From positions 13,623 through 77,622 of the IMG/VR virus record IMGVR_UViG_3300020577_013934: 64,000 bases of DNA; one strand, written 5' to 3'. Shown piece by piece: positions 1,717-63,817 of this stretch (positions are counted from its first letter, which is position 1; the number at the start of each line of letters is the position of its first letter). The translations under genes and the position numbers were made by a program. Source of the DNA: a virus (taxonomy: Duplodnaviria; Caudoviricetes). The notes under the pieces are model-generated. The model ran no database searches. It was not told where the DNA came from and worked only from the letters and a program-made list of their open reading frames with translations.

Positions 1717-2270
1717 TGGCTACGGGTGTGCGGATCTACTGGGAAGCCGATACAGACCCTGATGTGCAGAATTACGAGATTCGTCGAGGGCCGCAAGAGG
1801 GGCAACCTATTGTCCTGTTGCAGGTCGTTCCTCATGCGATTCCGGGCCTTAATTGGTCTGCGACGAAAAATAGATTCTTTTACGACGACCCACAAGGGGG
1901 TCCCGTGAACGTCTATCAGGTTACGGCTGTTTCTTCTGGTGGGGTGGCGATCGGCCAGACAGATGTCTTTACGCCGTTTGGTCCGACGGCTGCGACACCA
2001 ATGAAGATTGCCGTGGATCACAACTATGGAGGGCCAGACGCTCTCCGGTTTGTGACCGAGAGTGGTGTTGGTATTCCAGACGCAGATGTGCGTGTGTACA
2101 CCAAACCCGATTATGACGCGGGACGTTTTGCAGCGCCTATGTATGTTGTTCAGACAGATGACCAAGGACGCTGGCGCCGACCTGCGTTCTTGGATGCAGG
2201 GTTGGATTACGTCCTTTTGATGGAGAAACGTAGCGCTTACGTGAGTCAACCTACGCAGATCACTGTTTGA
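1716..2270 (+). CDS. Hypothetical protein, Fn3/Ig-like beta-sandwich character
   Basis: TGATG coupling to the upstream gene; IYWEADTDPDVQNYEIRR and NVYQVTAV resemble Fn3 strands. Confidence 0.5.
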   Translation: MATGVRIYWEADTDPDVQNYEIRRGPQEGQPIVLLQVVPHAIPGLNWSATKNRFFYDDPQGGPVNVYQVTAVSSGGVAIGQTDVFTPFGPTAATPMKIAVDHNYGGPDALRFVTESGVGIPDADVRVYTKPDYDAGRFAAPMYVVQTDDQGRWRRPAFLDAGLDYVLLMEKRSAYVSQPTQITV

Positions 2271-2320
2271 GGTTCAGGCACAATAGCGCTGAGCCGGCTG
2301 TTAATGCCGCGCGGGGAACT

Positions 2321-2395
2321 TGGCGGGACGGGAGGGAGTCGAACCCACGACCATCGGGTTAACGGCCCGATGCTCTGCCACTGAGCTACCGCCCC
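2321..2395 (-). tRNA. trnN: tRNA-Asn (GTT)
   Basis: Minus strand folds as a cloverleaf: acceptor GGGGCGG/CCGTCCC, anticodon loop CCGTTAA, T-loop TTCGACT, encoded CCA end. Confidence 0.95.
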
Positions 2396-2507
2396 GAAAA
2401 GCGTTCGCTGCCGGAGCATTGGCCCCGGCGGTGCGATTCTTTGAGGTGGCGAGCAAGATGGACATGGATTCGTCTCTATCACTCAAGATAGAGGGACGTA
2501 AATACGT

Positions 2508-2921
2508 GTGTCGAGCAAAAAACACGCCACACGCATTTACGTCACGGACGTGCCTTTGTGTTATTCTGTGTTCGTGAGCTACGCAGCCAACAAGCTCTAC
2601 GTCGACGGACTGAAAGCCGAGTCTTGCACCGATTGCGGGCGCTCGTTCCCGTCGGACGCGATGGACTTTGACCATGTGCGCGGCGTGAAGGGCGCAAACA
2701 TCTCGGACTTGCTTGGCGGCTCGCGAGCCCGGCTTGAAACAGAGTTGCTGAAGTGCGAGCTGGTTTGCGCGACGTGCCACCGGCAGCGCGAGATGACTCG
2801 CCGGCTCGATGCGCATGTCGACGCCGCTGACGCATTTGACGCGGATGCGGCGCTACTTGAGGCGGGCGGACGCTTCGCGGGCCTGTTCGAGGCTAGAGCC
2901 GATACGCTTGAAAAGGGCTGA
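2508..2921 (+). CDS. HNH-family endonuclease
   Basis: CTDCG...MDFDHVRG...KCELVCATCH zinc/HNH signature; true start may be downstream of 2508. Confidence 0.75.
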   Translation: MSSKKHATRIYVTDVPLCYSVFVSYAANKLYVDGLKAESCTDCGRSFPSDAMDFDHVRGVKGANISDLLGGSRARLETELLKCELVCATCHRQREMTRRLDAHVDAADAFDADAALLEAGGRFAGLFEARADTLEKG

Positions 2922-3175
2922 TGGAGTATATACGTCATCCTCGGCGCGACCCTGGAGCACGGCCTCGGCCTTGGCGTGGCAGTCGTCCTCGGTGTCGCAG
3001 AGCGTGACGCCGTTGGCGGCAACGTAGCTCCCGTTGGGCATGTCCTCGCGGGGGTGGATGTGGTGGGCGTCGAGCGGTACGCCCGTGGCGCCGCGTCGCG
3101 CAGCATGCGCACGAGCTCGGCGTGGAACGGGTTGCGCCAGCTGGTGGCGACGTAGATCTGGATCTTGTCGGTCAT
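2853..3175 (-). pseudogene. Out-of-frame chimera: N-terminus MTDKIQIYVATSWRNPFH joined to an HNH C-terminus (LDAHHI...NGVTLC...CH)
   Basis: The coupled ATG at 3175 starts one frame; the HNH motif lies in another frame; the switch is near 3085-3095. Confidence 0.5.
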
Positions 3176-3389
3176 CGCGCAAGGGCCTCCTTCGCCTTCT
3201 GTTTGTTCTTGAAGCACGTGCCGCACTTTACCTTGGATGCGTCGCGCACGAGGTTGCGGGGCTCGAAGTGGCCGCACTCCAGTCGGAGCCAGCGGCAGCC
3301 GCGTTCGTCGACGCCCACGGCGAGCACGGCGCGCAGGGCCCCTGGAGCGAGGCCACCTGCATCGTGCCGGGATGCGACCGGCTGGCCAT
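3172..3389 (-). pseudogene. Small Cys-containing gene with an apparent 1-nt frameshift
   Basis: ATG at 3389 is coupled to the upstream stop, but the GC3-rich coding-like frame (LRAVLAVG...LECGH...KCGTC) is a different frame. Confidence 0.35.
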
Positions 3390-3937
3390 CAGCGCAGCAG
3401 GCCGTGCTTGAGCAGCACGCCGCGCACGACCGAGTGGAAGATCGTGTCCTTGAGGCGCTGCGCGGGCGGCAGCTGGTCGTGCGGCAGGAAGCAGGGGTGG
3501 GTCTTCTTGATCGGGTCCTCGACCTCGCCGTAGCTCCAGTCATGCTGCGCCTTGAACGTCAGCCAGCCCTCGTGGCTTGTCTCGGGCGAGTTGCCCGCGA
3601 GGATGCCCGTGACGCCGGAGCGCACGCTGTTGCGCAGTTCCTCGGGGCACTCCTCCCACGCCGGCTTGACGGCCTCGCCGAGCGCCTTGCGGTACTCGTT
3701 GTTGACGGTGTGCGCGGTCTTGGCGGCCAGCTCGATCACGTCCTGCTTGTCCATCGGTTCGGTCCTCTCGCGGTGCTCCACGAACTTGTGGAGGTACTCT
3801 CGTCGGTACGCTTCGAGCGTGGGGTAGTCAACGTTGAAGACCTTGGCGACGTACCGCACGTCGTCCCACGCCATGTCGCAGTCGAGCGAGGCGAGGAGCT
3901 GGACGCGGACGTGGCGCGGAATCTGGAGTCCGTACAT
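3389..3937 (-). CDS. RyR-domain-containing phage protein
   Basis: SPETSHEGWL...WSYGEVEDPIKKTHPCFLPHDQLPPAQRLKD matches the ryanodine-receptor repeat motif common in phages. Confidence 0.75.
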   Translation of the reverse strand: MYGLQIPRHVRVQLLASLDCDMAWDDVRYVAKVFNVDYPTLEAYRREYLHKFVEHRERTEPMDKQDVIELAAKTAHTVNNEYRKALGEAVKPAWEECPEELRNSVRSGVTGILAGNSPETSHEGWLTFKAQHDWSYGEVEDPIKKTHPCFLPHDQLPPAQRLKDTIFHSVVRGVLLKHGLLR

Positions 3938-3980
3938 GATACTTGACCAAGTTTACCCCGTAACGGAAACTACTCCAACC

Positions 3981-4538
3981 ATGAACCTCACCAACCAGCC
4001 CGCCTATCAGGCTCGCCACCCCAAGTCCGTTCTCGTCACGCCGGAGTTTCCGCACGGCGCGGCGGCGCTCAACGCGCTGTTCGCCAACGACGCGTGGGAG
4101 CGCGACGAGGACATCAACGACACGATCGGCGAGGAGGTCGATCTGTCCACGGACGAGGCTCTCAAGAACTTCCACGCAGGCCCCGGCGAAAAGACCAGCC
4201 ATCGCCTGCGCTGGCGCGCGCCGATCGAGACGCTGCGCGGGCCGTGCTCGCTCTGGAAGGAGACGCACGAGGTGACCAGCACGCAGACGGCGCTCATGGC
4301 CACGCTGCGCGAGCGCCGGAACGAGGCGCCGCCTGCGTCCGTCGACGACGCGGAGCGCCCGGCCGAGGCGCCGCCGCTCCCGAAGTCCTATACGGCGTAC
4401 AAGCTCGTCTGCGAGGTCGACAACCTGCTCGACGGTGACTTCCAGACGCTCACGCGCATCGCCGACCGCCACAACTGCTCGCTCGGCGCCGAGGCGCTGG
4501 GCGACAAGGTGCTGCTTCAGCTCGCGTTCGTGCGATGA
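3981..4538 (+). CDS. Hypothetical protein
   Basis: GC3-rich ORF; start re-assigned to ATG 3981; overlaps the next start. Confidence 0.6.
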   Translation: MNLTNQPAYQARHPKSVLVTPEFPHGAAALNALFANDAWERDEDINDTIGEEVDLSTDEALKNFHAGPGEKTSHRLRWRAPIETLRGPCSLWKETHEVTSTQTALMATLRERRNEAPPASVDDAERPAEAPPLPKSYTAYKLVCEVDNLLDGDFQTLTRIADRHNCSLGAEALGDKVLLQLAFVR

Positions 4539-6096: not shown

Positions 6097-6425
6097 CCAA
6101 GCCCAAGACCAAGCCCAAGACCAAGCCGCCCACCCGCTACGATCAGCCGATCAAGATCTTCTGAGCCGTCGTCGTGCGCTTCGGTCCGAAGTGCGAACGC
6201 GGCTTTCTCCCCGTCTACTCCGTCGCCGACGAGCGCGAGGCCGAGGACCTGCTCCTCGCCGCGTGCGGACGCAACCTCGACGGCGAGTTCGTGGCCAAAG
6301 AACTCGCCGCGCACCAGACCCTCGACAACCTCAAGGCGTTCAGCGACCGCCTCCACGCGGTCCACGCGCACCTGCGCGAGCGCGGCAAGTGCCGCTGCGT
6401 CGCCCCCGAGCCCCATACGCCGTAA
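6093..6425 (+). CDS. Hypothetical protein interrupted by an in-frame TGA at 6162-6164 (Sec recoding, nonsense allele or error)
   Basis: AAGGAG RBS + GTG 6093; MTKPKTKPKTKPPTRYDQPIKIF*AVVVRFGPKCERG continues in the same frame into the listed ORF 6174-6425. Confidence 0.55.
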
Positions 6426-6489
6426 ACCTCCGGGCGGGGCAGGGTACAAGTACATAGACAGGAAGTACTGCCCCTCCAAGGAGTTCACC

Positions 6490-8103: not shown

Positions 8104-8152
8104 CACGCTTACTTACGCCGTAACGCCACACCTAACACGGAGCACACAACCC

Positions 8153-9549: not shown

Positions 9550-9581
9550 CCTCCGGGAGTTTACCGCGTACGGTAAACTCC
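9546..9581 (+). promoter_or_regulatory. Sigma70-type promoter overlapped by a perfect inverted repeat (operator-like)
   Basis: TTGACC(9546)-17 nt-TACGGT(9569), ATG at 9582; GGAGTTTACCG-CGTA-CGGTAAACTCC at 9556-9581. Confidence 0.65.
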
Positions 9582-9803: not shown

Positions 9804-10152
9804 GGGGGCGAAACGGCTTCGACGTGGAGAACTAGGTCGAGACTGCGTCACAGGGCTGGGCCACCTCACGGCTTACGTAGAAACGCGAACGACAACGCGA
9901 TGCTCGCAGCGGCCTGATAAGCCCCTGCGACGTCCTCGGGGCAGGCCGGCTCGGGTCGGCTTCGGGGGCGCAATCAATCCGAGCTAGCGAGCGCGGGCGG
10001 TGCGGCCGGCGCGGGCGAGACACGCAGCACCAGACCAGACGAGACCCCGCCCGTGGGGATGCTCGGCGGGAGAAGAGACACGCGGGACAGGTGACGTAGA
10101 CGTCCGGCGGAACGCTTCGCGGACCCGGGTTCGACTCCCGGCGCCTCCACCC
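9804..10152 (+). ncRNA. ssrA: tmRNA (SsrA), tag peptide ANDNAMLAAA
   Basis: 5' GGGGGCGAAACGGCTTCGAC; 3' GGTTCGACTCCCGGCGCCTCCACC; G3:U acceptor pair; tag frame GCG AAC GAC AAC GCG ATG CTC GCA GCG GCC TGA TAA at 9885-9920. Confidence 0.95.
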
Positions 10153-10220: not shown

Positions 10221-10246
10221 GGCCGTTACGCCGTATACTTCGGGCC

Positions 10247-11017
10247 ATGAGCACCTTCCGTTTCGTCGACGCCGGCATGTACTGCCTCCAGCAGACCGTC
10301 TCCGGGACGGGTGTGTTCAGCGGCGTGCGCCTCGGCTACGCGACGTACAGCTACAACTCGGGTGGGGCCCAATTCGACGTGCGCTTCCCGCACCTCGGCA
10401 CCGACGGCAACGCGTACAAGTTCCAGATGGACGCGCCGCCGAACACTGTGCCGGTGGCGAAGACGACCGCGTTTTTCGACAAGTCGTCCAAGACGCTGCG
10501 CGTGCAGCTGCGTGGCACGTCCGCCGCGATCACGTCCACTGCGCAAGAGGTCGTCGACGCGATCAACGGGCTCGACCGCCCGCTTTACGGCGCCGCGCTC
10601 GTCGCGGGCGCGGTAATCCCTGCCAGCCTCGCGCCCGTCAACCTCGCGGGCGGCCTCGACCCCGACCTCGCGGCCGGCTACGCGTTCCCCAAGCTCGCGC
10701 CCCCGGCCAACACGAACGGCGGCCTGTTCTACTTCGACCAGAACCGTCCCTGGAAGCTCCAGACCGTGGGCGGCGCGCTCGGCGCAGACGCGACGCTCAA
10801 GGTGTCCATCGTCAACGTGGACAAGGCGCTGCGCGTCATCGGCACGGCGGCCGTGGTACTGTCGTCGCAGAACCTCACGACCCCGTGGCAGCCGACCGGC
10901 ACGCGCATCGACGTGCCGGTGATGCCGGGGCAGGCCGTGCAGGTTACCGCCAACACGCAGGGCACGGTCTTCGTGACGGCGGCCTCCCTCACCGCGATGG
11001 ACAACATCTCCGACTGA
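10247..11017 (+). CDS. Putative virion structural protein, paralog of 15055-15849
   Basis: Shared motifs VSGTG.F.G, TA.EV..A.N, GG.DP, PP.N.N.G; TATACT -10 box 7 nt before the ATG. Confidence 0.6.
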   Translation: MSTFRFVDAGMYCLQQTVSGTGVFSGVRLGYATYSYNSGGAQFDVRFPHLGTDGNAYKFQMDAPPNTVPVAKTTAFFDKSSKTLRVQLRGTSAAITSTAQEVVDAINGLDRPLYGAALVAGAVIPASLAPVNLAGGLDPDLAAGYAFPKLAPPANTNGGLFYFDQNRPWKLQTVGGALGADATLKVSIVNVDKALRVIGTAAVVLSSQNLTTPWQPTGTRIDVPVMPGQAVQVTANTQGTVFVTAASLTAMDNISD

Positions 11018-11350: not shown

Positions 11351-11638
11351 ATGTCGAAGATCAAGCTGTTCATCAAGTCTCAGGCCGAGGCCCAGTCGTC
11401 GCACCGCCGCGCGCGTCCCCGCGACGCCGGGTGGGCCTCGAACCGCCTCGCGATCCGCCGCACCGCCCGCGCGGCGCTGCTGCTCTACGCGTTCTCGCGC
11501 GGCGTCGCGTACACCAAGCTGGAGCGCCGGGCGCACGAGCCACCGCCCGTGTGGCTCGCCGCCAAGCTCTCGGCGGAGCTGTGCGAGGCCCCCGTCACGG
11601 AAGGAGCGCTGTCCGCATGGACGACCGCTGCTACGTGA
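11351..11638 (+). CDS. Hypothetical basic protein upstream of the Pth2-like gene
   Basis: AGGAGG RBS; ARAALLLYAFSRGVAY motif. Confidence 0.65.
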   Translation: MSKIKLFIKSQAEAQSSHRRARPRDAGWASNRLAIRRTARAALLLYAFSRGVAYTKLERRAHEPPPVWLAAKLSAELCEAPVTEGALSAWTTAAT

Positions 11639-11925
11639 TCACGCGGTCCGACCTGCCCGTGCCCCAGCAGGCCGTGCAGGCGGCGCACGCCGCCCAGACC
11701 TTCGCCGGTCGCCACCCCGGCGACTACGCGCAGACCACGCTCGTCGTGCTCACCGTGCCCGACGAGCCGGCGCTCCGGGCACTGCGCGCACGCTTCGAGG
11801 CCACGCCCGCGCGCCTCGCCGCGTTCCACGAGCCCGACCGGGGCGGCGAGCTCACGGCGTTCTGCGCGGCCGGCGCCCCGGCGCGGCGGCTGTGCGCGCG
11901 CCTGCCGATGGCCTTCACGCCGTAA
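11617..11925 (+). CDS. Peptidyl-tRNA hydrolase type 2 (Pth2)-like protein
   Basis: AAGGAG RBS; YVITRSDL..QQAVQAAHA...LVVL.VPDE..L...FHEPD...LTA pattern of phage Pth2-like proteins. Confidence 0.7.
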   Translation: MDDRCYVITRSDLPVPQQAVQAAHAAQTFAGRHPGDYAQTTLVVLTVPDEPALRALRARFEATPARLAAFHEPDRGGELTAFCAAGAPARRLCARLPMAFTP

Positions 11926-11945
11926 AGCCGCCTACGCTTTCGTGC

Positions 11946-12269: not shown

Positions 12270-12270
12270 G

Positions 12271-12341
12271 CGCCCCGGATGGGAGTCGAACCCATCTCAC
12301 CGCGTTTAGAGCGCGGTGCCTGACCGCTAGGCTACCGGGAC
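12271..12341 (-). tRNA. tRNA with CUA anticodon (amber suppressor), Glu/Gln-like body, CCA not encoded
   Basis: GTCCCGG TA GCCT AGCGGTC AGGC A CCGCG CTCTAAA CGCGG TGAG ATGGG TTCGACT CCCAT CCGGGGC G; anticodon at 12309-12307. Confidence 0.88.
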
Positions 12342-12769
12342 TTGTTGCGCCCACAGTATGTGGGTAGCTGCGAGTCGCAGTTGGGACAGAGTAGACGGAG
12401 ATTGCGGAGTCGGTTGTCGTTGTTGTGCCCGTTGATGTGATCGAGGCGCAGGGTAAGCGGCTTTCCGCGCCACGTATTGATCCCGCACAACGCACACACG
12501 TGTTTGAGTAGTCCCGCTTTCAGCAAGCGGCGCTTGAGAGGCCCACGGGCGTACGTGCTGTTGGCGACCAACACGGCTTTGAGCGGGGTGTCGGTGCTTC
12601 GGCGTGAGCGCCCGTGTGCTTTTCCAGTCCAGTGTGTCGTGTCGAGTTTACGCCGTTCGACTTCGCGTTTGACGTAGCGGTAGTTGCTTCCGACGATCGC
12701 GCGCCCGAGGGTACGTATGACGCCTGCGATGGAGACGTTCTGTCGTACGGCTCGCTCGAAGGCGTCCAT
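12332..12769 (-). CDS. HNH homing endonuclease
   Basis: CALCG...LRLDHINGHNNDNRLRNLRLLCPNCDSQ; its TAG stop lies inside the 5' end of the tRNA; lower GC. Confidence 0.9.
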   Translation of the reverse strand: MDAFERAVRQNVSIAGVIRTLGRAIVGSNYRYVKREVERRKLDTTHWTGKAHGRSRRSTDTPLKAVLVANSTYARGPLKRRLLKAGLLKHVCALCGINTWRGKPLTLRLDHINGHNNDNRLRNLRLLCPNCDSQLPTYCGRNKSR

Positions 12770-13530: not shown

Positions 13531-13542
13531 TTCTTTACGGCG

Positions 13543-16807: not shown

Positions 16808-16836
16808 TTGTCGTAGTTTACCGTACGCGGTAAACT
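16808..16836 (+). promoter_or_regulatory. Sigma70-type promoter overlapped by the same inverted repeat as at 9558
   Basis: TTGTCG(16808)-17 nt-TAAACT(16831), ATG at 16843; AGTTTACCG-TACG-CGGTAAACT at 16815-16836. Confidence 0.65.
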
Positions 16837-53217: not shown

Positions 53218-53249
53218 GGCCAAAGGTTACGCGCTCGCCGACGCGGCGC

Positions 53250-53588
53250 CTACTGCTGTTGCTGCGACGCGGCCTGCCCCGCGCCGAACATCCGCCCCGC
53301 GCCGTACGCCGCCGCGCCGCCGGCCGCCGCCGCGCCGAGCGCCTTGCCCGCCGCCGGCACGCCGCCCGCACGCTGGAACCCCTTGGCGCCGGCCGCGATA
53401 CCCTTGCCGAGGTTTTGCATCATGCTGCCGCCGCCGTGCTGGTACGCCTTGGTGCCCGCGCCGAGCGCGCGCGTCGCCGCCCCGCCGAGCGTCGACAGGA
53501 CGCCGCTGAGCTTGTCCAGGCCGTACCGGGCCAACACCTTCTGCGCGCCGCGCGCCCGCGCGGCGTCGAGCGCCTCCTTCGTGATCAT
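53250..53588 (-). CDS. Small Gly/Ala-rich protein with RYGL motif
   Basis: TGATG coupling; ARARGAQKVLARYGLDKLS; Gly zippers. Confidence 0.6.
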   Translation of the reverse strand: MITKEALDAARARGAQKVLARYGLDKLSGVLSTLGGAATRALGAGTKAYQHGGGSMMQNLGKGIAAGAKGFQRAGGVPAAGKALGAAAAGGAAAYGAGRMFGAGQAASQQQQ

Positions 53589-53965
53589 CAGACTCCTCCG
53601 TACGTGATGTTGCGGCTCAGGCCGTTGCGGTCGCCCGGTTCGTTCGGCATGCCCATTGGCGCGCCCCACAGCGAGTCACCCGTGCGCTTCGGCGCGACCG
53701 GCTCGTCGCCGTAGCCGAAGTTGCTCTGGGCGAAGAGCTTCGCCAGCGCCTCGATCGGTTCGCCCGACTCGTCGAGCAGGGCGTACTTGGCGGCGACCTT
53801 GCGGATCGCGCGCGACCGGGCCTCGCTCGCGAGCTTCTGCTTGGCGGCGTCGCCGAAGCTCTTCGTTACGCCGTAAAAGCCCGGCTCCTTGTCGAAGTGG
53901 AAGCCGCGCTGGCGCTTCTTGAGGCGCGTCGTGACGCCGCGCGCGATGTTCTTGAGGTCAGGCAT
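53588..53965 (-). CDS. Small basic hypothetical protein
   Basis: TGATG coupling; RAIRKVAAKYAL motif. Confidence 0.55.
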   Translation of the reverse strand: MPDLKNIARGVTTRLKKRQRGFHFDKEPGFYGVTKSFGDAAKQKLASEARSRAIRKVAAKYALLDESGEPIEALAKLFAQSNFGYGDEPVAPKRTGDSLWGAPMGMPNEPGDRNGLSRNITYGGV

Positions 53966-54447
53966 CAGCACTCACTCCGAAGGTAGCGGCGCATGTCGTC
54001 GGCGTGCTGCTGGTCCACCAGCGCGCCCTCCTGCGCGAGCGCGTTGAGGGGCACGTCGTCGGCCGTCGCGCGGAACAGCTCCGACCACTTGGCGACGACC
54101 TCCAGCTCCATGGAGAGCAGCGACTCGAAGACGGCGCGCGGGTCGTTCAGGCCCACGAGCGCCGTCGGAGCCGGGTCGGCGTGCGCGTCGGCCCCGAGCG
54201 CGGTGATCTTCTTGTTCAGCTCGTAGATGAACTCGCGCTCTTCTTTGATGTGCTCCTGGAAGTGCTGGTAGATGCCGTCGCGGCAGAAGGCCCGCAGCTG
54301 GTCGCCGTAGTGGATGTAGGCGAGCAGCAGCGCGTACTTCTTCGACAGGATGGCCTGGAGGCACGGCACGTGCGCGCCGGCCGCCGGGGCGGCGTCGGGG
54401 GTCTTGGGCTCTGCGTGGCCGAGCAGGTCATCCAAGAAGTCGAACAT
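53965..54447 (-). CDS. Ferritin-like (bacterioferritin/Dps-type four-helix bundle) protein
   Basis: Y..H...FQEHIKEEREF..EL.KKI.ALG; SMELEV; DQQHAD di-iron-type spacing. Confidence 0.7.
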   Translation of the reverse strand: MFDFLDDLLGHAEPKTPDAAPAAGAHVPCLQAILSKKYALLLAYIHYGDQLRAFCRDGIYQHFQEHIKEEREFIYELNKKITALGADAHADPAPTALVGLNDPRAVFESLLSMELEVVAKWSELFRATADDVPLNALAQEGALVDQQHADDMRRYLRSEC

Positions 54448-57400
54448 CAGGGTCCTCGTCCTCGTCGCCTTCGCCCGTCAGCAGCTCCGGCGGGAAGTAG
54501 GATAGCGCCTCGTCGGGCTCGACGGGATAGAACGGCGCCGGCAGCTCCGCGCCCATGCCGTACCCGTCGGCCAGCTCCTCGTCCTCGGCGCGCTTCTCGT
54601 TCTCGATCTCGATGGCGTCCGAGAGCTTCAGCTCGCCGCGCCGGTACGCCGCGAGCGCGTCCTCGCGCGTCTTGAACTTGCGCACCGGCCCCGTCGGCGT
54701 CGTGTGCTTCGCCGCGAGCGTGAACGCGATGATCGCCTCGTGCTGCGGGAAGACCATCAGGCGGTTTCGCTGCTGGTCGCTCAGCAGCATGTTGCTGAGC
54801 GTCATCTGCTTGGCGTCCGCGACGGCCTCGGCGCCGATCGGGAAGTGCACCTGCAAGGTGTCGCCGTCGTAGTCCAAGTTCATGCCCTTCTCGGTGAACG
54901 AGGACACGCGAATCGTCTTGCCCGGCACCGGCTTCGCGTACGCCGCGACGATCGAGCCTCGGTGCAGCGTCGGCGCGCGGTTGATGATCGCCGGGCGCTC
55001 GCGCGTCTCGGCGAGCAGCGCGTCGCGCGCCGCCGGGGCCTTCGCGTTGACCAGCTCGCGCGCCTGGAGCGCCGGGTAGCCGGTGCGGATCAACCGCGCG
55101 ACGACCAGCTTGTCGAGCGACTGCCAGAGCATCGGCTCGGGGATGCCGACCTCGTCCATCCCGAGGTTGGAGTCCGGCACGGCGGTGCCGCGCCCCGACA
55201 CGTCCTGCGTGCGGCGCATCAGCTTGCGCTGGAAGAAGCCGCCCTTCGGCGTGCCGACGCCCGCCACCGAGGCGAGCAGGCCCTTGACCTTCTGCTGCTG
55301 GAGCTTCGGGTCGCGCGGCAGCGTCGTGCCGTACAGCTCCTCGACCTTCTCGTAGAGGTCCTGGCGGTGCTTGCCCAAGTCCGACTCCACGGCCGTCGTC
55401 TTCAGCGTCTTGTTGGAGTCGAAGAGCTGGCCGTACAGCTTGTTGGCGTCGGCGACCATCAGCTGCGACGGGTCGCGCACGCCCGGCTGGATCGGGCGAA
55501 ACACCGGCGGGATCACCGGCACCTTGCTGATCACGTACGCGTCGGCGGGGCTGAGCTTGTGCGCCTGGAGCGCCTCCAGGTACTTGATCTGCTTCACCAC
55601 GTCGTTGAGCGCGGGGCCCTTGGCGTTCTTCAGCTGCTCGCGCAGCTCGCGCAGCTTGCGCGGCACGTCGATCTTCGCCAGCTCGGACCGGAACCACGCG
55701 CCGCCGTTGGCGCGCAGCGCCTCCTTGAACTTCGGCTCGGTCATCCCGAGCAGCCGGCGCACCGGCTCCTCGAAGACCGGGTTCGGCACCGGCTCGTGCA
55801 AGTCGATGTGCGCGAAGAGCGTGCCCTGCGTGCCGCCGGTCTTGCGCGGGTCGAACAGGCCGCCGGTCTCCGGCTTGAGGTCCTTCGCGCGCACCGTCGC
55901 GCCGTGCTCGATCGCGCCCGCGCTGCGCGCGAGCACGTCCTTGTCGGTCATCGGCAGCAGCGCGAACTTCGAGCCGCGCTTGTCGACCTTGACCCCGGAC
56001 CCTTCGAGCAGCCCGAGGAACTTGTTGAACGCGAACGACGGCTTCGGCGCCGGCAGCGGCAGGCCCGTCTGCACGGCCTTCCAGTACTCGTCGTTCTTCT
56101 GGCCGCGCACCGTCGCCGCCTCGCGCAGGAAGTTGCGCGCGTTGTGCGCGAGCAGCGCGTCGAACTCCATCTTGCCGAGGCCCTTGGCGCTCTCGTCGCC
56201 GCCGGTCTTCAGGGGCTGCTCGTTGAGGTCGTACGGACCGACGCCGTGCCCGGCGAAGTTGGTGTCCGTGCTCTTGAACAGCTTGTAGATGTACTGCTTG
56301 CCGACGAGCACGCCCTTGCCGTCCGCGCCGACGACCTTGCGCTGGAGCACCGGGTCGTAGAGCTCCTCCTTGTCCTTGACGCCGTGCTCGCGCATCAGGT
56401 TGCGCGCCCACTTTACGGCGTTATGCCCCGCCGCGTTGTCGTAGACGATCGGCTTGCCGGTCTTGTCCGCCACCTTCGCGACGGCCGTCTCGATGACCTG
56501 CGCGGGGTTGATGCGCGACACGACGCCGGCCGACGTGAGCAGCAGGTCGAGCGGGTGGCCCTGCTCGTCGCGCAGCATCTCGTGGTCGGGCACGATCTTG
56601 GCGACGACGCCCTTGTTGCCGTAGCGGCCCGCGAGCTTGTCGCCGACCTGCATGGCCTCGCGCGTCTTCACGAGGATCGTGATCTGGCCGCTCGCCCGCA
56701 CCACGTCGACGACCTCGCCGGGCACGCCGTGGTCCCAGACCAGCGCGACGTCCTTGAACGGCTTGATCAGCGACTTGCCGAGGCGCCCGAGCATCGCGTC
56801 GGTGCCCGTGACGGCCTGCTTCATCAGGCCGGCCACGAGCACGTCCTTCGGGTCGACCTTCGCGCCCTTCTTGACCACGCCGCTCTCGTCGAGCTTGCTG
56901 TACATCGACGCGGGGTACTTCGCGCCGTAGTAGAGCTGGTGCTTCGCGCGGTTCAGCTCGATCCCCGTGCCGAGCGGAAAGACCTCGCGGTACATGTGCT
57001 CGCTGGTCAGCTTCTGCGCCGCCGCCGCCGAGATCACCACGGCGTCGTTCGAGTTGTACCCGTAGTACGGCAGGTAGCCGACGCGCAGGTTCTTGCCCAG
57101 CGCGAGCACGCCGTCGCGCGTGTAGTTCGACTCCGCGAGGCGCTGGCCCTCCTCGACCTTGTCGCCCGGCTTCACGTCGACGGCGTGGTCGAGGAACGTC
57201 TTCGACGGGAACGGGAACTTCTTGTAGTAGGGCACCTTGACCAGCGCTGCGTCGCCGGCCGCGCCCCGCTTCTCGGCGTGCGGCTTGATGTACACGAACT
57301 GGTCGTCGACCTTCGCGACGGTGCCCGCCACGGGCGCGGTCGGCACGATCATGTGCCCGTAGATCGCCTCGAACGAGTGGCCGTCCGGGTGGTGCGACAT

Positions 57401-58972
57401 GACCTGCACGAGCGGCGCCTCGCGCTCGACGAGCGGGAGCGCCTGCGTCCCCATCTTCGAGCCCATGATCGCGCGGTTGCCCTGGATCGAGTGGATCATC
57501 GGGATCAGCGACGTCGCGGGCGAGTACAGGTGCTTGACGTGTCCGAGCTGGTGCGTGACGCGCGACGCCGGGACGCGCGTCTGGTGTCCGTCGACGAACG
57601 CGTCGACCGTGCCCGTCAGCTCCTGGTGCGGAAACGCGACGACGTACTTGTGCAGGTCGCCCGCGCGGACGAAGTCGTCCTTCCCCGTCTTCACGTTGCG
57701 CAGCACCGTGTAGAGGTTGCCCTTGTCGTCGCGGTGCGCCGCGATCGTCGCGCGGATGTCGACGCCGGAGTGGTTCGACTCCGGCGTGCGGATCGGGTCG
57801 AGCGCGCCGAAGTGCGTGTTGTGGATCATGCGCGCGTCCAGCGGGATCGCGCGGTCCGACGGGATGCCGCCCTCGCCGAGGCTCGTCACCTTCACGGCGT
57901 GGTCGATGATCTCCATCGGGTTGATGCCCGTCGGCACGCTGGAGAGCGACGAGGTCGTGAGGAACTTGCGGATCGAGTCCGAGAACGGCGCCGGCTTGAG
58001 CGCCTCGCGGATCGAGCTCTTGCCCGTCAGCGCCATCTTCGCCTTGGGCGCCCACTGGCGCGCGGTCAGGCGAACGCGCTCCGCGACGAAGTCGTCCAGG
58101 GCGTGGAACGTCTTGAACTTCAGCGAGTCGGTGTCGTCGACCGGTGTCTTGCCCGCGTGCACGTCGAGCATCTTCTTCGCGGCGACGAGCAGCGCGTCCG
58201 GCGTCACCTTCGTGTGTGCGGCGCCGAGCGTCACGCTCGTCACCTCGGGGTCGAGCGTCGACTGGTCGTAGCGCTTGCGGATCGCCTCGACCTTCGCCTC
58301 GTGCGGCGCGTTCGCGTCCATCACCGCTGGGTGCTCCAGCTTGGCGTAGAGCTTCCCGATCGCCGTCGCGGTCTGGTGGCCGTGCTCCTCCTCGTTGGCG
58401 CGCGCGACGCCCTCGCCGAGGTGTTTGGCGATTTGCGCGTGCTCGACGCCCAGTCCGCGCAATACGGCGTAAAGGGGCAGGTTCGACGTGCCGTACTGGA
58501 GGTGGAACGTGCCCTTGTCGGGGTTGAACGCGAGGTCGAAGTTCTTGCCGCGTCCGAGGTTGAACACCGTCTTGAGCTCGCCGTTTTCGGCGCGCTGGGT
58601 GTAGACGCCGGGCTTGCGTCGCAGTTGGTTCGCGACCTGATACTCGTTGCCGTCCGCGATGACGGTGTGCCGCGCCGTCAGGAACGGCACGTGAGCGAGC
58701 GTGAAGTTCTTGGCTTCGTCGACGACCTTGCCGTGCGCGTCCTTGAGCACGAGCGTGCCCTTGACCGGCTCGTAGAGCGACGAGCCTTTGGTGATCGCCG
58801 CGTACTCCTCCGCCGGACCGAAGTCCTGCGCGTGCACGCGCACGTCCTTGACCTCCAGCGTTCGCCCCTTGAGGTCGAGCGGGAACGCCGCCGTCAGGGC
58901 CTGGGTCGTCTTGTCGTGCAGCTTCTGGCGCAGCGTGGTGGCGCTGGTCAGCACGGGCGTCAGCTCGTTCAT
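54428..58972 (-). CDS. rpoB: Phage multisubunit RNA polymerase: complete beta fused to the catalytic N-terminal half of beta-prime
   Basis: NQLRRKPGV, GDKLAGRYGNKG, SRINPAQ, GKMEFDAL (beta); KPETGGLFD, VPVIPPVFRP, DVSGR, NRAPTLHR, NLDYDGD (beta-prime active site, 54860-54880). Confidence 0.95.
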   Translation of the reverse strand: MNELTPVLTSATTLRQKLHDKTTQALTAAFPLDLKGRTLEVKDVRVHAQDFGPAEEYAAITKGSSLYEPVKGTLVLKDAHGKVVDEAKNFTLAHVPFLTARHTVIADGNEYQVANQLRRKPGVYTQRAENGELKTVFNLGRGKNFDLAFNPDKGTFHLQYGTSNLPLYAVLRGLGVEHAQIAKHLGEGVARANEEEHGHQTATAIGKLYAKLEHPAVMDANAPHEAKVEAIRKRYDQSTLDPEVTSVTLGAAHTKVTPDALLVAAKKMLDVHAGKTPVDDTDSLKFKTFHALDDFVAERVRLTARQWAPKAKMALTGKSSIREALKPAPFSDSIRKFLTTSSLSSVPTGINPMEIIDHAVKVTSLGEGGIPSDRAIPLDARMIHNTHFGALDPIRTPESNHSGVDIRATIAAHRDDKGNLYTVLRNVKTGKDDFVRAGDLHKYVVAFPHQELTGTVDAFVDGHQTRVPASRVTHQLGHVKHLYSPATSLIPMIHSIQGNRAIMGSKMGTQALPLVEREAPLVQVMSHHPDGHSFEAIYGHMIVPTAPVAGTVAKVDDQFVYIKPHAEKRGAAGDAALVKVPYYKKFPFPSKTFLDHAVDVKPGDKVEEGQRLAESNYTRDGVLALGKNLRVGYLPYYGYNSNDAVVISAAAAQKLTSEHMYREVFPLGTGIELNRAKHQLYYGAKYPASMYSKLDESGVVKKGAKVDPKDVLVAGLMKQAVTGTDAMLGRLGKSLIKPFKDVALVWDHGVPGEVVDVVRASGQITILVKTREAMQVGDKLAGRYGNKGVVAKIVPDHEMLRDEQGHPLDLLLTSAGVVSRINPAQVIETAVAKVADKTGKPIVYDNAAGHNAVKWARNLMREHGVKDKEELYDPVLQRKVVGADGKGVLVGKQYIYKLFKSTDTNFAGHGVGPYDLNEQPLKTGGDESAKGLGKMEFDALLAHNARNFLREAATVRGQKNDEYWKAVQTGLPLPAPKPSFAFNKFLGLLEGSGVKVDKRGSKFALLPMTDKDVLARSAGAIEHGATVRAKDLKPETGGLFDPRKTGGTQGTLFAHIDLHEPVPNPVFEEPVRRLLGMTEPKFKEALRANGGAWFRSELAKIDVPRKLRELREQLKNAKGPALNDVVKQIKYLEALQAHKLSPADAYVISKVPVIPPVFRPIQPGVRDPSQLMVADANKLYGQLFDSNKTLKTTAVESDLGKHRQDLYEKVEELYGTTLPRDPKLQQQKVKGLLASVAGVGTPKGGFFQRKLMRRTQDVSGRGTAVPDSNLGMDEVGIPEPMLWQSLDKLVVARLIRTGYPALQARELVNAKAPAARDALLAETRERPAIINRAPTLHRGSIVAAYAKPVPGKTIRVSSFTEKGMNLDYDGDTLQVHFPIGAEAVADAKQMTLSNMLLSDQQRNRLMVFPQHEAIIAFTLAAKHTTPTGPVRKFKTREDALAAYRRGELKLSDAIEIENEKRAEDEELADGYGMGAELPAPFYPVEPDEALSYFPPELLTGEGDEDEDPDVRLLG

Positions 58973-59045
58973 CGCAAGCGAAGTCTAGCGGCTGTACGCG
59001 GTAAAAGCCCATGGTGGGCCCTTCTGCCCGCCGAAGGAGATTCGC

Positions 59046-61744: not shown

Positions 61745-61771
61745 CGCTTCTCCAACCGAAAGGAGTAACAC

Positions 61772-63817
61772 ATGCTCGTAGCGGGCACCTTACTCAGAAA
61801 GTCTATCCCCGTGTTTCGCGTGCCGGCGCCCGAGCAATCGTTCCTCGCGCGAGCGTGGGGCGGCGTGCATTCCGACGGCGCGTGGCTCTTCCCCGCCTAC
61901 TTCCCGTTCGCCAAGTGGGTGTTCGAGGACCTGCGGAAGCTCGCGCCCCAGGCGGCGTGGGACGACGCCGCCCGCGACCACCTCGCCGCCGTCCGCGCCG
62001 CCGACAAGGCGTGGGACGCCGCCGCCGCCGCGTGGGAGCGCCGCGAGCCGGCGCCCCTGCCGGTCGACGACGACTTCTTCACCCCCGGCTTTACGCCGTA
62101 CACCCACCAACGCCTCGGCATCGCGCGGCTCGTCCACTGGTGGCGCTCGTTCCTCGACTGGGACATGGGCACCGGCAAGACCCGCACCGCGATCGACGCG
62201 TTCCGCGTGCTCCGCCGCCAGGGGGAGTTCCGGCGCGCGCTCGTCCTCGGCCCGCCCGTCGTGCTGGAGTCCTGGGCCCGCGAGGTCGCGCGCTGCTCGC
62301 GCGGCGCGTGGAAGGCCGTCATCTGGGACGGCACGCCCGAGGCCGAGGCGGCGGCCCAGACCGCCGACGTCGTCCTGGCGTCGTACACCCGCGTCCGCAT
62401 GGAGCGCGAGGCGGCGCACGACGCCGCCCGCGAGCTGGCGATCACCCCCGCGCAGCGCGAGCGCTACAAGCTCGCGCCGCTCACCGAGGCCGACGTCGCG
62501 CGGCTCACGCGCGCCGCGTCCCACCCCCTCCACGCGCTCGACTACGACACCATCGTCGCGGACGAGAGCCACTACCTCGGCAACTGGGCCTCGGGCCAGA
62601 CCCAGGCCGCGATCGAGCTGTCCGCCAAGGCCGTGCGCCGCTACTGCCTCAGCGGCACGCCCGGCGACGACCCCCGCAAGCTCTACGGCCAGCTCTACTT
62701 CCTCTCCCCGGCGCTCGTGCCGCTCCCGTACCACAAGTTCGAGGAGCACCACGTCGTCTACTCGCCCAAGAACAAGCACGTCGTCGTCGGCTTCCGCTTC
62801 CTCAACGAGCTCAACGAGCGCTTCCGCAGCGTCGCGCTGCGCATGAAGAAGTCCGACTGCCTCGACCTGCCGCCGGTCACGACCGTCGACCTGCACTTCG
62901 ACCTCGGCGTCGCGCAGCGCGCCCGCTACAACGAGCTCGTCATGGAGATGGCGATGTCCGTGACGCCGGAGCTGCTCTACGCCGAACCGGCGCGCGTCAC
63001 CGAGGAGTTCGCGGCGCAGCGCCAGTCGGTGCGGCTGCCGCACGGCGCGACGCGCGTCAACAAGATGCTCCAGGTCTTGTCCGGTTTCGTGATCCAGGGC
63101 GCGGACTACTCGATCTGCGACGCGTGCCCCCGCATGGAGGCGTGCGTCGCGGCCAAGATCCGTCCCTACACCAAGAAGTGCGAGGTCGTGCAGGCGGCGC
63201 CCGAGCGGCGCGTCCTGCGCGACATCGAGAACCCGAAGCTCGACCTGTACAAGGATCAGCTCGCGCTGATCCTCGACACCGACGAGACCAACAAGGTGAT
63301 CGTCTGGGCGAACCTCACCGAGGAGCTCGACGACCTGGAGGCCGCGACCAAGGCCCTCGGCGTCGGCTACGTGCGCGTCGACGGCGCGACGCTTGCGCGC
63401 CAGAAGCGCATCGACAAGTTCCAGGACGACGCCAAGTGCCGCGTCTACATCGGGCAGGTCAGCACCGGCATCGGCATCACGCTCACGGCGGCGAACTACA
63501 CGCTCTTCTACTCGCTGCCGTGGGACCCGCTCCAGTACCGGCAGGCGATGGACCGGAACAACCGGCCGGGGCAGCGCCGCGCCATGACGGTCTACCGCCT
63601 GCTCACCTCCGACGCGTCGTGGGGCCTGGACCGCTACGTCGCGCAGGTCCTGCTCTTCAAGGAGGGGATCACGCTCACGCTGACCGACCTGATCGCGTGC
63701 GCCGGCTGCGACCGGCAAACGACCTGCGCGCGCGACGAGATCCTCCCCTTCCGGGCCAAGTGCAAGTACGCTGCGAACGTCGCGCGCCCCGTCGCCGACG
63801 TGGAGGTCATCGAGTAA
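61772..63817 (+). CDS. SNF2-family (SF2) helicase
   Basis: DMGTGKT, IVADESH, LSGTP, GIGITLT, QAMDRNNRPGQ; AAGGAG RBS. Confidence 0.92.
   Translation: MLVAGTLLRKSIPVFRVPAPEQSFLARAWGGVHSDGAWLFPAYFPFAKWVFEDLRKLAPQAAWDDAARDHLAAVRAADKAWDAAAAAWERREPAPLPVDDDFFTPGFTPYTHQRLGIARLVHWWRSFLDWDMGTGKTRTAIDAFRVLRRQGEFRRALVLGPPVVLESWAREVARCSRGAWKAVIWDGTPEAEAAAQTADVVLASYTRVRMEREAAHDAARELAITPAQRERYKLAPLTEADVARLTRAASHPLHALDYDTIVADESHYLGNWASGQTQAAIELSAKAVRRYCLSGTPGDDPRKLYGQLYFLSPALVPLPYHKFEEHHVVYSPKNKHVVVGFRFLNELNERFRSVALRMKKSDCLDLPPVTTVDLHFDLGVAQRARYNELVMEMAMSVTPELLYAEPARVTEEFAAQRQSVRLPHGATRVNKMLQVLSGFVIQGADYSICDACPRMEACVAAKIRPYTKKCEVVQAAPERRVLRDIENPKLDLYKDQLALILDTDETNKVIVWANLTEELDDLEAATKALGVGYVRVDGATLARQKRIDKFQDDAKCRVYIGQVSTGIGITLTAANYTLFYSLPWDPLQYRQAMDRNNRPGQRRAMTVYRLLTSDASWGLDRYVAQVLLFKEGITLTLTDLIACAGCDRQTTCARDEILPFRAKCKYAANVARPVADVEVIE

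Follow-up and report, generated by a model that had tools for sequence, protein, structure and literature searches.

In Bacillus subtilis, Noc is an orphan ParB paralogue without a dedicated ParA, and its binding sites (NBS) number about 70 in 4.2 Mb, or about one per 60 kb, with none near the terminus and no even tiling. On the 60-kb IncP plasmid RK2 there are 12 OB sites, and KorB works together with IncC, a ParA-type protein. Cluster A mycobacteriophages carry stoperators, the sites of L5 gp71, which are short and dispersed (about 24-36 in number), some of them intragenic, at a spacing of about 1.5-2 kb. The distribution of the Cluster A stoperators has also been described in PMC4351075. 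The OB core, TTTAGCGGCTAAA, is a 13-bp odd palindrome with TTTA...TAAA ends (PMC11790492); the RK2 operators are spread around the replicon, some near promoters and some far from them, and KorB slides over a range of about 1.5 kb (PMC11790492; PMC13584720; PMC13768133). A published precedent in phages is the set of dyad repeats in the Cluster O mycobacteriophages (Corndog and its relatives), where a 17-bp dyad, TGTTCGG-N3-CCGAACA, is present in more than 30 copies in a genome of about 70 kb, with about a third of the copies in coding regions and no orientation relative to transcription; these phages are not obviously temperate, they encode ParB-like domain proteins, and the function of the repeats is stated to be unknown (PMC4351075, PMC6439249). 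We found no paper in the literature that gives such phage site arrays a mechanism or a function.

The window analysed here is a 64,000-nucleotide stretch of phage DNA, part of a 77,622-bp contig (G000) that is itself an incomplete genome; relatives reach 119-191 kb. It carries a DNA word that is enriched, evenly spaced, under purifying selection and independent of strand, and that recurs in relatives as dialects. This asymmetric 10-mer, TTTAC-SSS-GT, occurs 36 times in the contig and 32 times in the window, and when the window copies are read as TTTAC-SSS-GT or AC-SSS-GTAAA, 22 lie on the plus strand and 10 on the minus strand. A preliminary description of the window had counted 32 exact cores, and both the count and the coordinates hold; the near matches that it named were recovered as 13-mers with at most two mismatches at 8112, 10225, 20658, 41612 and 47386, and its ceiling of about 3.1 kb on the gaps agrees with a largest window gap of 3097 bp when near matches are counted. 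It had also presented the word as a dyad, TTTAC-SSS-GTAAA: the form of the site is indeed of the dimeric-binder type, but an exact search of this genome for the perfect 13-mer dyad, TTTACSSSGTAAA, returned no copies. The consensus in this genome is an asymmetric 10-11-mer, S-TTTAC-G-S-C-GT-W, whose second arm consists of GT-W only, a strong asymmetry that is unusual for a symmetric dimer. The sites are listed below, with their retention in two relatives: G001, whose RNAP is 96% identical to that of G000, and G002, which has a GC content of 49%.

1968-1977, plus: site TTTACGCCGT, within ORF 1713-2270 (plus)
3952-3961, plus: site TTTACCCCGT(AAC), intergenic between divergent genes 3389-3937 (minus) and 3981-4538 (plus)
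4389-4401, unstranded: near-match dyad TATACGGCGTACA, from the 13-mer mismatch search
6417-6426, minus: site TTTACGGCGT, 3' edge of gene 6174-6425 (plus)
8112-8124, unstranded: near-match dyad CTTACGCCGTAAC, intergenic (8103/8153)
9560-9569, plus: site TTTACCGCGT, intergenic, inside a 20-bp palindrome at 9559-9578
10225-10237, unstranded: near-match dyad GTTACGCCGTATA, shortly upstream of gene 10247-11017 (plus)
11917-11926, minus: site TTTACGGCGT, 3' edge of gene 11617-11925 (plus)
12647-12656, plus: site TTTACGCCGT, no confident CDS call
13534-13543, plus: site TTTACGGCGT, 3' end of patatin-like gene 13543-14274 (minus)
15373-15382, plus: site TTTACCGCGT, CDS 15055-15849 (plus)
16825-16834, minus: site TTTACCGCGT, intergenic, inside a 20-bp palindrome at 16816-16835
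17447-17456, plus: site TTTACGCCGT, CDS 16843-17514 (plus)
18927-18936, plus: site TTTACCGCGT, 8 nt into CDS 18919-19701 (plus); kept in G001
20658-20670, unstranded: near-match dyad TGTACGGCGTAAT, from the 13-mer mismatch search
22286-22295, minus: site TTTACGGCGT, CDS 22008-22304 (plus); kept in G001
23510-23519, plus: site TTTACGCCGT, ORF 23285-23854 (plus)
26145-26154, plus: site TTTACGGCGT, CDS 24446-26230 (minus); kept in G001, lost in G002
28990-28999, minus: site TTTACGCGGT, gp5-like spike gene 28689-30155 (minus); kept in G001
30748-30757, minus: site TTTACGGCGT, CDS 30170-30955 (minus); kept in G001 and G002
32938-32947, plus: site TTTACGGCGT, mid-gene in the 1079-aa CDS 31527-34766 (minus); kept in G001
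34806-34815, plus: site TTTACGGCGT, intergenic; CDS 31527-34766 (minus) starts 40 bp downstream
36827-36836, plus: site TTTACGGCGT, CDS 36346-37023 (minus); kept in G001 and G002
39608-39617, plus: site TTTACGGCGT, CDS 39397-39777 (minus); kept in G002
41324-41333, plus: site TTTACGGCGT, CDS 40588-42495 (minus); lost in G001, kept in G002
41612-41624, unstranded: near-match dyad TGTACGCCGTAAG, CDS 40588-42495 (minus)
43261-43270, plus: site TTTACGGCGT, junction of genes 42531-43280 (minus) and 43270-43500 (minus)
44128-44137, plus: site TTTACGCCGT, CDS 43497-44813 (minus); kept in G001
46128-46137, minus: site TTTACGCCGT, CDS 45686-46390 (minus); kept in G001 and G002
47386-47398, unstranded: near-match dyad CTTACGCCGTACA, CDS 46401-49055 (minus); homologous sites in L005 and L007
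48778-48787, plus: site TTTACGGCGT, CDS 46401-49055 (minus); kept in G001 and G002
51391-51400, plus: site TTTACGGCGT, CDS 50796-51464 (minus), adjoining the end of the beta-prime C-terminal gene
52562-52571, plus: site TTTACGCCGT, RNAP beta-prime C-terminal gene 51418-53223 (minus); kept in G001 and G002
53868-53877, minus: site TTTACGGCGT(AAC), CDS 53588-53971 (minus); kept in G001 and G002
56412-56421, plus: site TTTACGGCGT, mid-gene in the fused RNAP gene 54428-58972 (minus); kept in G001, lost in G002
58464-58473, minus: site TTTACGCCGT, fused RNAP gene 54428-58972 (minus); kept in G001 and G002
58996-59005, minus: site TTTACCGCGT, intergenic divergent region; the RNAP gene starts 24 bp downstream (58972)
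62090-62099, plus: site TTTACGCCGT, SNF2 helicase gene 61772-63817 (plus); lost in G002

A dinucleotide shuffle of the window gave 0.69 expected sites against 32 observed (13-mer, at most two mismatches), a Markov-3 model of the contig gave 0.66 against 36, and a synonymous-codon shuffle within each gene gave about 0.8 CDS sites against 22. The gaps between the 36 exact sites have a CV of 0.47, where random placement gives 0.97, and none of 20,000 simulations was as regular (P<5e-5); the CV is 0.51 when near matches are added (n=43). The even genome-wide tiling that had been proposed is borne out. In comparison with G002, 10 of 17 genic sites are identical and at the same codon, against 3.0% of all 10-nt windows (P ~1e-11), and 16 of 18 are likewise kept in G001, against 29% of windows. 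The codon-shuffle null, the reading of the word in all frames and on both strands, and the conservation of those 10 sites at a third-position identity of 39% together indicate that selection acts on the DNA and not on the protein, as the preliminary description had maintained.

Relatives carry comparable lattices: G001 has 56 sites (gap CV 0.40), G002 has 36 (0.64), the complete 186.8-kb genome G003 has 71 (0.58) with no copies of a reversed control word, G004 has 37 (0.50), G005 has 39 perfect TTCAC-N3-GTGAA dyads against 0.07 expected (0.55), and the complete 191-kb genome G006 has 47 TAACC-N-GGTTA sites (0.53). We recognise four dialects, A to D, of one 13-bp odd palindrome, with half-sites TTTAC, RTAC, TTCAC and TAACC respectively; AC-NNN-GT is common to all of them and every dialect is evenly spaced across the genome. 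Dialects B, C and D are perfect palindromes of 11-13 bp and dialect A is a one-armed version; the dialect C half-site TTTCAC is that of canonical parS. Positions are conserved within a dialect (17/32 and 13/29, against about 0.2 by chance) and almost fully turned over between dialects, with 1-4 shared, yet site density is steady at 0.18-0.37 per kb of CDS. Because positions turn over while density holds, what selection maintains is coverage and not particular positions.

The relatives also supply a candidate for the protein that reads these sites. A syntenic protein of 350-373 amino acids with ParB_N and HTH_ParB regions is encoded in all five of the lattice-bearing full records searched (G001-G005) and at 12 of 21 loci. 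Its matches to PF02195 (ParB_N) go down to E 2.2e-7 and those to PF17762 (HTH_ParB) have E values of 1.6e-14 in G005 and 6.1e-14 in G004, and are weak, below the cut-off, in G001 and G002; the syntenic protein of G006 is very divergent, with no Pfam HTH_ParB match and 24% identity by tblastn. CTPase box II (GRRRR, GRRRT or GRQRV) and box III (ENLKR or ENIKR) are present, and the residues of the CTP pocket (G113, R116, N149 and R152) are invariant in 11 orthologues together with S189 and Q190 of the recognition helix. Other residues of that helix vary by dialect: SEGN-VSQ-V in A, SPGK-VSQ-Y in B, SDxx-VSQ-Y in C and SEAY-VSQ-I in D. The protein matches Spo0J (7.5e-7) and Noc (7.7e-5) among PDB sequences, with KorB as a marginal match (E 0.37). 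An AF2 model (pLDDT 78.6) matches the structures of ParB-parS (6t1f, TMt 0.75), KorB-KorA-DNA (8qa9, 0.73) and Noc (7nfu, 0.67), resembles CDP- and CTPgS-bound ParB structures in its fold, and superposes on the DNA-binding domains of ParB-parS, Noc-NBS and KorB-OB. The N-terminus is a disordered T/E/K-rich tail with pLDDT below 50; the C-terminus, where a dimerisation domain that closes the clamp would lie, has no Pfam match and consists of two confident helices (295-336) after a disordered linker and has a conserved G-x3-G-x3-A-x-G. On sequence and model, the relatives' protein has an N-terminal ParB CTPase fold and a ParB-type HTH.

Dialects A, B, C (L002) and D each have a site 373-400 bp ahead of the start of the ParB gene, and this conserved upstream site is missing at 3 of 12 ParB-bearing loci. 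As in the preliminary description, no cognate HTH protein was identified in the window: tblastn with the relatives' ParB matches nothing in the 77.6-kb contig. The contig stops about 2.5 kb short of the syntenic position, this being the distance in G001 between the homologue of the last contig ORF and the ParB gene, and from this synteny we infer that the full genome behind the contig encodes the protein too. A ParABS partition system was considered and rejected: a crude regular-expression test found no KGGxGK[ST] in six frames of G000-G005, a similar test found no ParA-stimulating peptide, [LFI]G[KR]G[LFI], in the ParB-like protein, and the sites are genome-wide with sub-random gap variance, not a few clustered centromeres.

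The word S-TTTAC-G-S-C-GT-W is this clade's version of the 13-bp odd palindrome, and we consider that it is probably a parS/OB-like loading site of a phage-encoded orphan protein of the ParB/KorB family. By analogy with ParB, Noc and KorB, the HTH of a ParB dimer would recognise the dyad; the protein would bind CTP, shut into a clamp and slide onto the flanking DNA; and a site every 2 kb or so would keep the whole phage chromosome occupied, given that KorB clamps reach about 1.5 kb. A need for full occupancy would explain why evenly spaced sites are kept by selection, even inside genes and despite the cost in rare codons. Downstream, such clamps might silence or time transcription globally, condense or mark the phage DNA, or shield it from nucleases. 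The link between ParB and the sites is correlative and, since dialect, ParB sequence and clade change together, phylogeny confounds it. The preliminary interpretation, a protein-plus-site system that gates promoters and coats or organises the genome, is partly supported as a whole. More tentatively, and with the balance of our judgement still against it, large and apparently lytic RNAP-bearing phages may coat the whole chromosome with an orphan ParB-CTP clamp loaded from a 2-4-kb site lattice, as a self-mark, shield, condensate or transcription timer, with clamp specificity and a lattice of about 40-70 sites having been rewritten together at least three times. If this is true, it would give the ParB fold a new biological role and offer a natural example of a protein co-evolving with its sites across a whole genome.

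It is unlikely, though deserving of attention, that ParB is unrelated to the sites and that these are bound by another dimeric phage DNA-binding protein, as yet unrecognised, which might repress genes globally, organise the DNA in the manner of a nucleoid protein, or assist packaging or replication. Most genes of the lineage lack a Pfam or PHROG match, which would make it easy for an HTH or RHH protein to hide among them; G007 encodes a ParB-HTH protein and has a local cluster of a different palindrome, with no dispersed lattice found; and the Cluster O authors judged a part in genome stability unlikely for their own ParB-like proteins and drew no connection between these and the 17-bp dyads (PMC4351075). 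Against this, the sites agree with the ParB-family operators OB and parS in both geometry and half-sites, a syntenic ParB is found in every lattice-bearing record examined, and a gene-content comparison gave no further family that tracks the motif. For Salmonella phage Arash, a distant cultured relative (RNAP 35% identical), the whole record gave no HTH_ParB match, and the 100 kb examined gave no word that is both enriched and evenly spaced. We think it very improbable that the word is recognised by a phage enzyme acting on DNA, whether a site-specific modification enzyme or an endonuclease making T5-like localised nicks or cuts. Its core is a short odd-centred palindrome like many type II sites, in relatives the genes flanking ParB include two PD-(D/E)XK nucleases, and regular nicks could in principle aid packaging or ejection, but an enrichment of about 50-fold with selected even spacing is not normal for such sites, dialect A allows degeneracy in the second arm and three different centres (GSC, CGC and CCC) where such sites are strict, and the contigs assemble straight across them.

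Prokaryotic Okazaki fragments are about 2 kb long and the 2-4 kb spacing is of that scale, which could suit priming or initiation signals read by a sequence-specific primase or primase-polymerase in a lineage that has its own replication module (a family A DNA polymerase, helicases, and RNase T-like and RuvC-like nucleases). Signals read on single strands, however, have no need of the dyad symmetry that is perfect in dialects B, C and D; each strand would carry a site only every 4 kb or so since orientation in dialect A is mixed, and no primase with long-site specificity was identified, so that we give this reading very little weight. Still less credible is a role as promoters, terminators or pause signals for the phage multisubunit RNAP or sigma-like factors, or as L5-type directional stoperators. 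The phage does encode a fused beta/beta-prime RNAP and its relatives encode sigma-like proteins, and sites are enriched about 3-fold in intergenic DNA (9 of 32 are not wholly within a called CDS where noncoding DNA makes up 8.4% of the window, P ~1e-3), some lying 24-40 bp upstream of gene starts. About two thirds are nevertheless intragenic, many of them mid-gene in long ORFs, the other dialects are perfect palindromes, and no RNA hairpin can be built from a 4-bp arm around a 1-nt centre. Counted on the coding and the template strand, TTTAC occurs 9 and 14 times in G000, 20 and 17 times in G001, and 14 and 16 times in G002; because orientation is independent of gene strand, the word is neither promoter-like nor stoperator-like, and the stoperator analogy drawn in the preliminary description fails on polarity.

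Compared with described systems, the probable ParB/KorB-type array shares with the Cluster A stoperators the dispersal of short sites through a phage genome, genes included, but those sites are asymmetric, serve a monomeric repressor in a temperate phage and are oriented with transcription, whereas the family-wide site here is a dyad. Canonical ParB systems use few clustered sites, whereas about 20-70 are found genome-wide here. Noc-type dispersed sites, also suggested at the outset, are an apt precedent: the NBS of B. subtilis (7nfu, 7ol9, 6y93) are palindromic and dispersed, not clustered, and Noc resembles the orphan ParB in fold (TMt 0.67) and in sequence (E 7.7e-5), although Noc needs an N-terminal membrane-targeting helix where the phage protein has its disordered tail. 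The Cluster O repeats are likewise dyads with a 3-bp spacer, spread through the genome independently of strand in phages with ParB-like proteins; they differ in sequence and host, increase in density toward one end of the genome and lie mostly between genes, and their authors report no even-spacing statistics, dialects or link to a binder. The phage array departs from KorB/OB of RK2 in being denser, even genome-wide and mostly genic (36 sites in 77.6 kb; 71 in 187 kb in G003), in a lineage with no ParA-type ATPase found and no KorA/TrbA-like clamp-locker identified, and in its replicon, a large phage that is apparently lytic and encodes an RNAP of its own. With that system it has in common the 13-bp odd-palindrome geometry with TTTA...TAAA ends, a ParB-family CTPase with an HTH (here predicted, from relatives), many dispersed sites in place of one centromere, and a site spacing of the same order as the 1.5-kb or so over which KorB slides.

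The short word that recurs along this contig is a real DNA feature under strong selection. Every one of the 32 cores named in the preliminary description is present in the window and its five near matches were confirmed. The idealised dyad that it put forward, TTTACSSSGTAAA, has no exact copy, so we redefined the motif: the word conserved in the contig is asymmetric, S-TTTAC-G-S-C-GT-W, and the full dyad TTTACGSCGTAAA is an idealised 13-bp form of the site. Most copies have GGC or GCC at the centre, seven have CGC or GCG, and one has CCC. There are 36 copies in the whole contig, where a third-order Markov model expects 0.66, and the 13-mer with up to two mismatches is found 32 times against 0.69 in a dinucleotide shuffle. 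When synonymous codons are shuffled gene by gene, about 0.8 sites remain in coding sequence compared with the 22 observed; the shuffle's total of 14.8 counts 14 sites that lie outside the gene calls and are untouched by it. The even spacing also stood up. Sites placed at random give gaps with a coefficient of variation (CV) of 0.97; the 36 exact sites give 0.47, or 0.51 once the near matches are added, and this regularity was not reached in any of 20,000 simulations. No gap exceeds 4.5 kb, compared with an expected maximum of 8.3 kb. The dinucleotide, Markov and codon-shuffle nulls, together with these gap statistics, rule out chance or an artefact of composition. Two intergenic 20-bp elements (window 9559-9578 and 16816-16835) combine a lattice site with another TTTAC arm in inverted orientation; they read TTTAC-N8-GTAAA, the arms being 8 bp long and the spacer 4 nt. 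One copy also occurs in the relative G001, and from their sequence the elements might act as a special operator or fold into an RNA hairpin.

Copies of the word fall in all reading frames and on either strand, which bears out the earlier claim that selection acts on the DNA and rules out a protein-level motif. The relative G002 has an RNA polymerase that is 84% identical, a GC content of 49% and a third-codon-position identity of 39% to our contig (G000), and 10 of 17 genic sites are unchanged in it at the same codon position (P about 1e-11); identical 10-nt windows make up 3.0% of all windows in the alignment of the two. In G001, 16 of 18 sites are unchanged, against 29% of windows identical. 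The TTTAC arm lies on the coding and template strands in 9 and 14 cases, respectively, in G000, 20 and 17 in G001, and 14 and 16 in G002. The arm is thus unrelated to the coding strand in all three, which rules out the polarity of a promoter or a stoperator, and we reject a transcription signal. Noncoding DNA is about three-fold richer in sites (9 of 32 in the window, which is 8.4% noncoding; 22 of 71 in the relative G003, which is 10% noncoding), and about two thirds of the sites still lie within genes, often mid-gene in long ones, that for RNA polymerase included. Of the 36 sites in the whole contig, 24 have their TTTAC arm on the + strand (two-sided P=0.065), and no switch in orientation is seen along its length; this excess is probably noise, and G001 has no such bias (29:27).

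The contig is a single viral sequence of 77,622 bp with 68% GC, of which the window is bases 13623-77622, and megablast against cultured phages gave no near-identical match to it. Genes were called with a codon-usage model; most have no match in Pfam or PHROGs, a search of about 70 proteins yielding few. The calls include a gp5-like tail spike, an SNF2 helicase, a thymidine kinase and an AAA kinase, together with the features that follow.

Selected called genes and RNA genes
54428-58972, - strand: RNA polymerase beta domains fused to the N-terminal part of beta-prime, 1514 aa (Rpb2_6, Rpb2_3, Rpb2_2, Rpb1_2)
51418-53223, - strand: separate C-terminal piece of beta-prime, 601 aa (Rpb1_5)
13543-14274, - strand: patatin-like phospholipase, an accessory gene unusual in phage
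3389-3937, - strand: RyR-domain protein, an accessory gene unusual in phage
18919-19701, + strand: InPase-family pyrophosphatase-like protein, an accessory gene unusual in phage
24112-24438, - strand: zinc-ribbon protein, an accessory gene unusual in phage
window 2321-2395, - strand: tRNA-Asn (ARAGORN)
window 9804-10151, + strand: tmRNA with the tag ANDNAMLAAA (ARAGORN)
window 12270-12341, - strand: tRNA with anticodon CUA, of the amber suppressor type (ARAGORN)

The multisubunit-type RNA polymerase is therefore rearranged, with beta and part of beta-prime joined and the C-terminus of beta-prime apart. The polymerase is closest, among cultured phages, to those of Salmonella phage Arash and some Vibrio phages (34-35% identity). 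In IMG/VR there are 21 related loci (polymerase identity 33-96%) on contigs of up to 119-191 kb, two of them with terminal repeats; the phage is therefore large, and the 77.6-kb contig covers part of its genome. Sigma70_r2 and Sigma70_r3 domains occur in the relatives, each in a separate sigma-like protein. A low-GC island (53-58%, in a genome of 68% GC) occupies window 1-3300 (genome 11-17 kb), where codon-model scores are poor and confident genes few; lattice sites occur within it at genome 11515, genome 12079 and window 1968.

De novo k-mer and dyad scans of the full records of relatives (G001 to G008) revealed variants of the half-site, which we call dialects.

Dialects of the lattice site in the contig, related full records (G) and related loci (L)
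Dialect A, TTTAC-GSC-GT: G000, G001, G002, L001, L003 and L004; 56 sites in G001 (CV 0.40), 36 in G002 (CV 0.64)
Dialect B, RTAC-GSC-GTAY, a perfect palindrome: G003, G004 and L009; 71 sites in G003 (complete, 186.8 kb; CV 0.58), 37 in G004 (CV 0.50)
Dialect C, TTCAC-GNC-GTGAA: G005, L002, L012 and L013; 39 perfect dyads in G005 against 0.07 expected (CV 0.55, P=2e-4)
Dialect D, TAACC-N-GGTTA: G006 (complete, 191 kb); 47 sites (CV 0.53)

A reversed control word has no copies in G003. Judged by their sequences, the four dialects are versions of one 13-bp odd palindrome in which AC-NNN-GT is invariant, with variation at half-site position 3 and the inner pair. Positions are conserved within a dialect (17 of 32 between G001 and G002, 13 of 29 between G004 and G003, where chance gives about 0.2), and between dialects only 1-4 of them coincide, an answer to the proposed check of whether relatives keep sites at shifted positions. 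Density stays steady across dialects at 0.18-0.37 per kb of coding sequence. Since positions have turned over while density has been kept, single positions are dispensable and it is coverage that is maintained. Comparing gene presence and absence between motif-positive genomes and G005 proved uninformative; G005 does not lack the system and carries a sister dialect.

In geometry and in its ends the dyad matches the KorB operator (OB) of plasmid RK2, and we therefore searched for ParB-family genes. Each of the five full records covered at this stage encodes one ParB_N-domain protein of 350-373 aa, and its gene, which is syntenic and lies near those for the SNF2 helicase and RNA polymerase, is present in 12 of the 21 related loci; in one lattice-bearing relative it is L042:5723-6775, - strand. 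The protein has ParB_N and a ParB-type H-T-H, with a faint KorB-domain match in G005, and carries the box II arginine patch and box III ENxxR. It aligns in sequence with the solved structures of Spo0J, Noc, ParB and, weakly, KorB, and an AlphaFold model from 11 orthologues (mean pLDDT 78.6) superposes on KorB-KorA-DNA (8qa9, TMt 0.73), Caulobacter ParB-parS (6t1f, 0.75) and Noc (7nfu, 0.67). The CTP-pocket residues and a Ser-Gln of the recognition helix are invariant among the orthologues; the residues beside the Ser-Gln vary by dialect (SEGN..V, SPGK..Y, SDxx..Y, SEAY..I), a covariation with the site that is confounded with phylogeny. The dialects provide a ready specificity-switch series for relating recognition-helix residues to position 3 of the half-site and to the inner base pair. 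A search of every frame of six genomes gave no Walker A motif of the ParA type, and the ParB has no ParA-stimulating peptide; it thus looks to be an orphan like Noc.

In G001 the neighbours of the ParB gene are a divergent sigma-70 region-2 protein, two PD-(D/E)XK nucleases and a replication module (family A polymerase, helicase, RNase T-like and RuvC-like nucleases). In dialects A, B, C (L002) and D, a lattice site precedes the ParB start by 373-400 bp (L005:3561, L007:4014, L003:3547, L009:5136, L020:5119, L021:4929, L002:4114, L011:3313). Outside dialect A this site is a hybrid, with one arm in the dialect of the genome and the other GTAAAG, and it falls within an apparently noncoding stretch of about 640 bp that might hide a small gene or RNA. 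The ParB gene is absent from the 77.6-kb contig, whose last, truncated ORF is homologous to the G001 gene two genes before ParB; from the G001 gene order we infer that the full genome encodes it, some 2.5 kb past the right end of the contig. The syntenic ParB-like protein of G006 is very divergent. A tblastn search of cultured phages with the ParB gave one weak metagenomic match only, so a cultured model for this protein is lacking.

Who else might bind the sites? Pfam and PHROGs searches of about 70 proteins found no DNA binder other than ParB, and another may still be present. A host-encoded protein is an unlikely binder, given that the same word is kept in relatives of 49% and 68% GC, which probably have different hosts, and that dialect C departs from canonical parS by a 3-bp insertion. 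A further rival, of low probability, is that the word is the nick or end site of a DNA-acting enzyme. As for ParB itself, a ParB-type H-T-H is absent from the entire Arash record, and the 100 kb of it that were examined showed no enriched word with even spacing; a perfect-dyad scan of G007, G008 and Arash found no dispersed sites. The more distant relative G007 does have a ParB-HTH gene, and k-mer and dyad scans found no dispersed lattice there; either the prediction that a ParB-positive genome has a lattice failed in G007 or its site is too degenerate for the scans used. G007 carries about eight copies of a different palindrome, TACTTTCCGGAAAGTA, in 1.2 kb (L062:2900-4100, record 62.9-64.1 kb), 57 kb from the ParB-HTH gene; this cluster could be a classical centromere or origin.

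Known ParB-family CTP clamps segregate chromosomes and plasmids, mediate nucleoid occlusion or silence plasmid genes. On balance we think it rather probable, by analogy with these, that the lattice sites load sliding ParB-CTP clamps that keep the chromosome occupied. ParB dimers would nucleate at every lattice site, close upon CTP and then slide, and with the sites spaced about as far apart as a clamp can travel, the whole chromosome would be occupied. Selection would remove long gaps and coding cost would remove redundant sites, and the variance of the gaps would therefore be sub-random. Candidate purposes for such a coat are KorB-like silencing or timing, condensation, and self-marking or shielding. 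The spending of coding capacity and rare codons on a loading site every 2 kb implies a need for continuous DNA coverage, which to our knowledge is a requirement in no described ParB system. From the even spacing one could read off how far a clamp effectively reaches in vivo, and a short, strongly over-represented word with a gap CV of about 0.5 provides a signature with which to search metagenomes.

We found no paper in the literature searched that links a phage ParB to a genome-wide lattice of sites. The closest orphan-ParB dispersed system is Noc with its NBS sites, whose density is some 30 times lower, and the closest mechanistic model is KorB at OB, which differs in having far fewer sites and a ParA partner. 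The stoperators of Cluster A phages are oriented, and the comparison with them fails on that point. The core of OB reads TTTAGCGGCTAAA, and promoters as far as 1.5 kb away are within reach of a KorB-CTP clamp (PMC11790492). The non-temperate Cluster O mycobacteriophages carry an unexplained array of about 34 dyads, TGTTCGG-N3-CCGAACA, and also encode ParB-like proteins (PMC4351075, PMC6439249); a function for the lattice would likely explain these repeats too, to which no function has been assigned since 2015. The lattice, with the binding protein that we infer for it, is best filed with the ParB/KorB site-plus-clamp systems.
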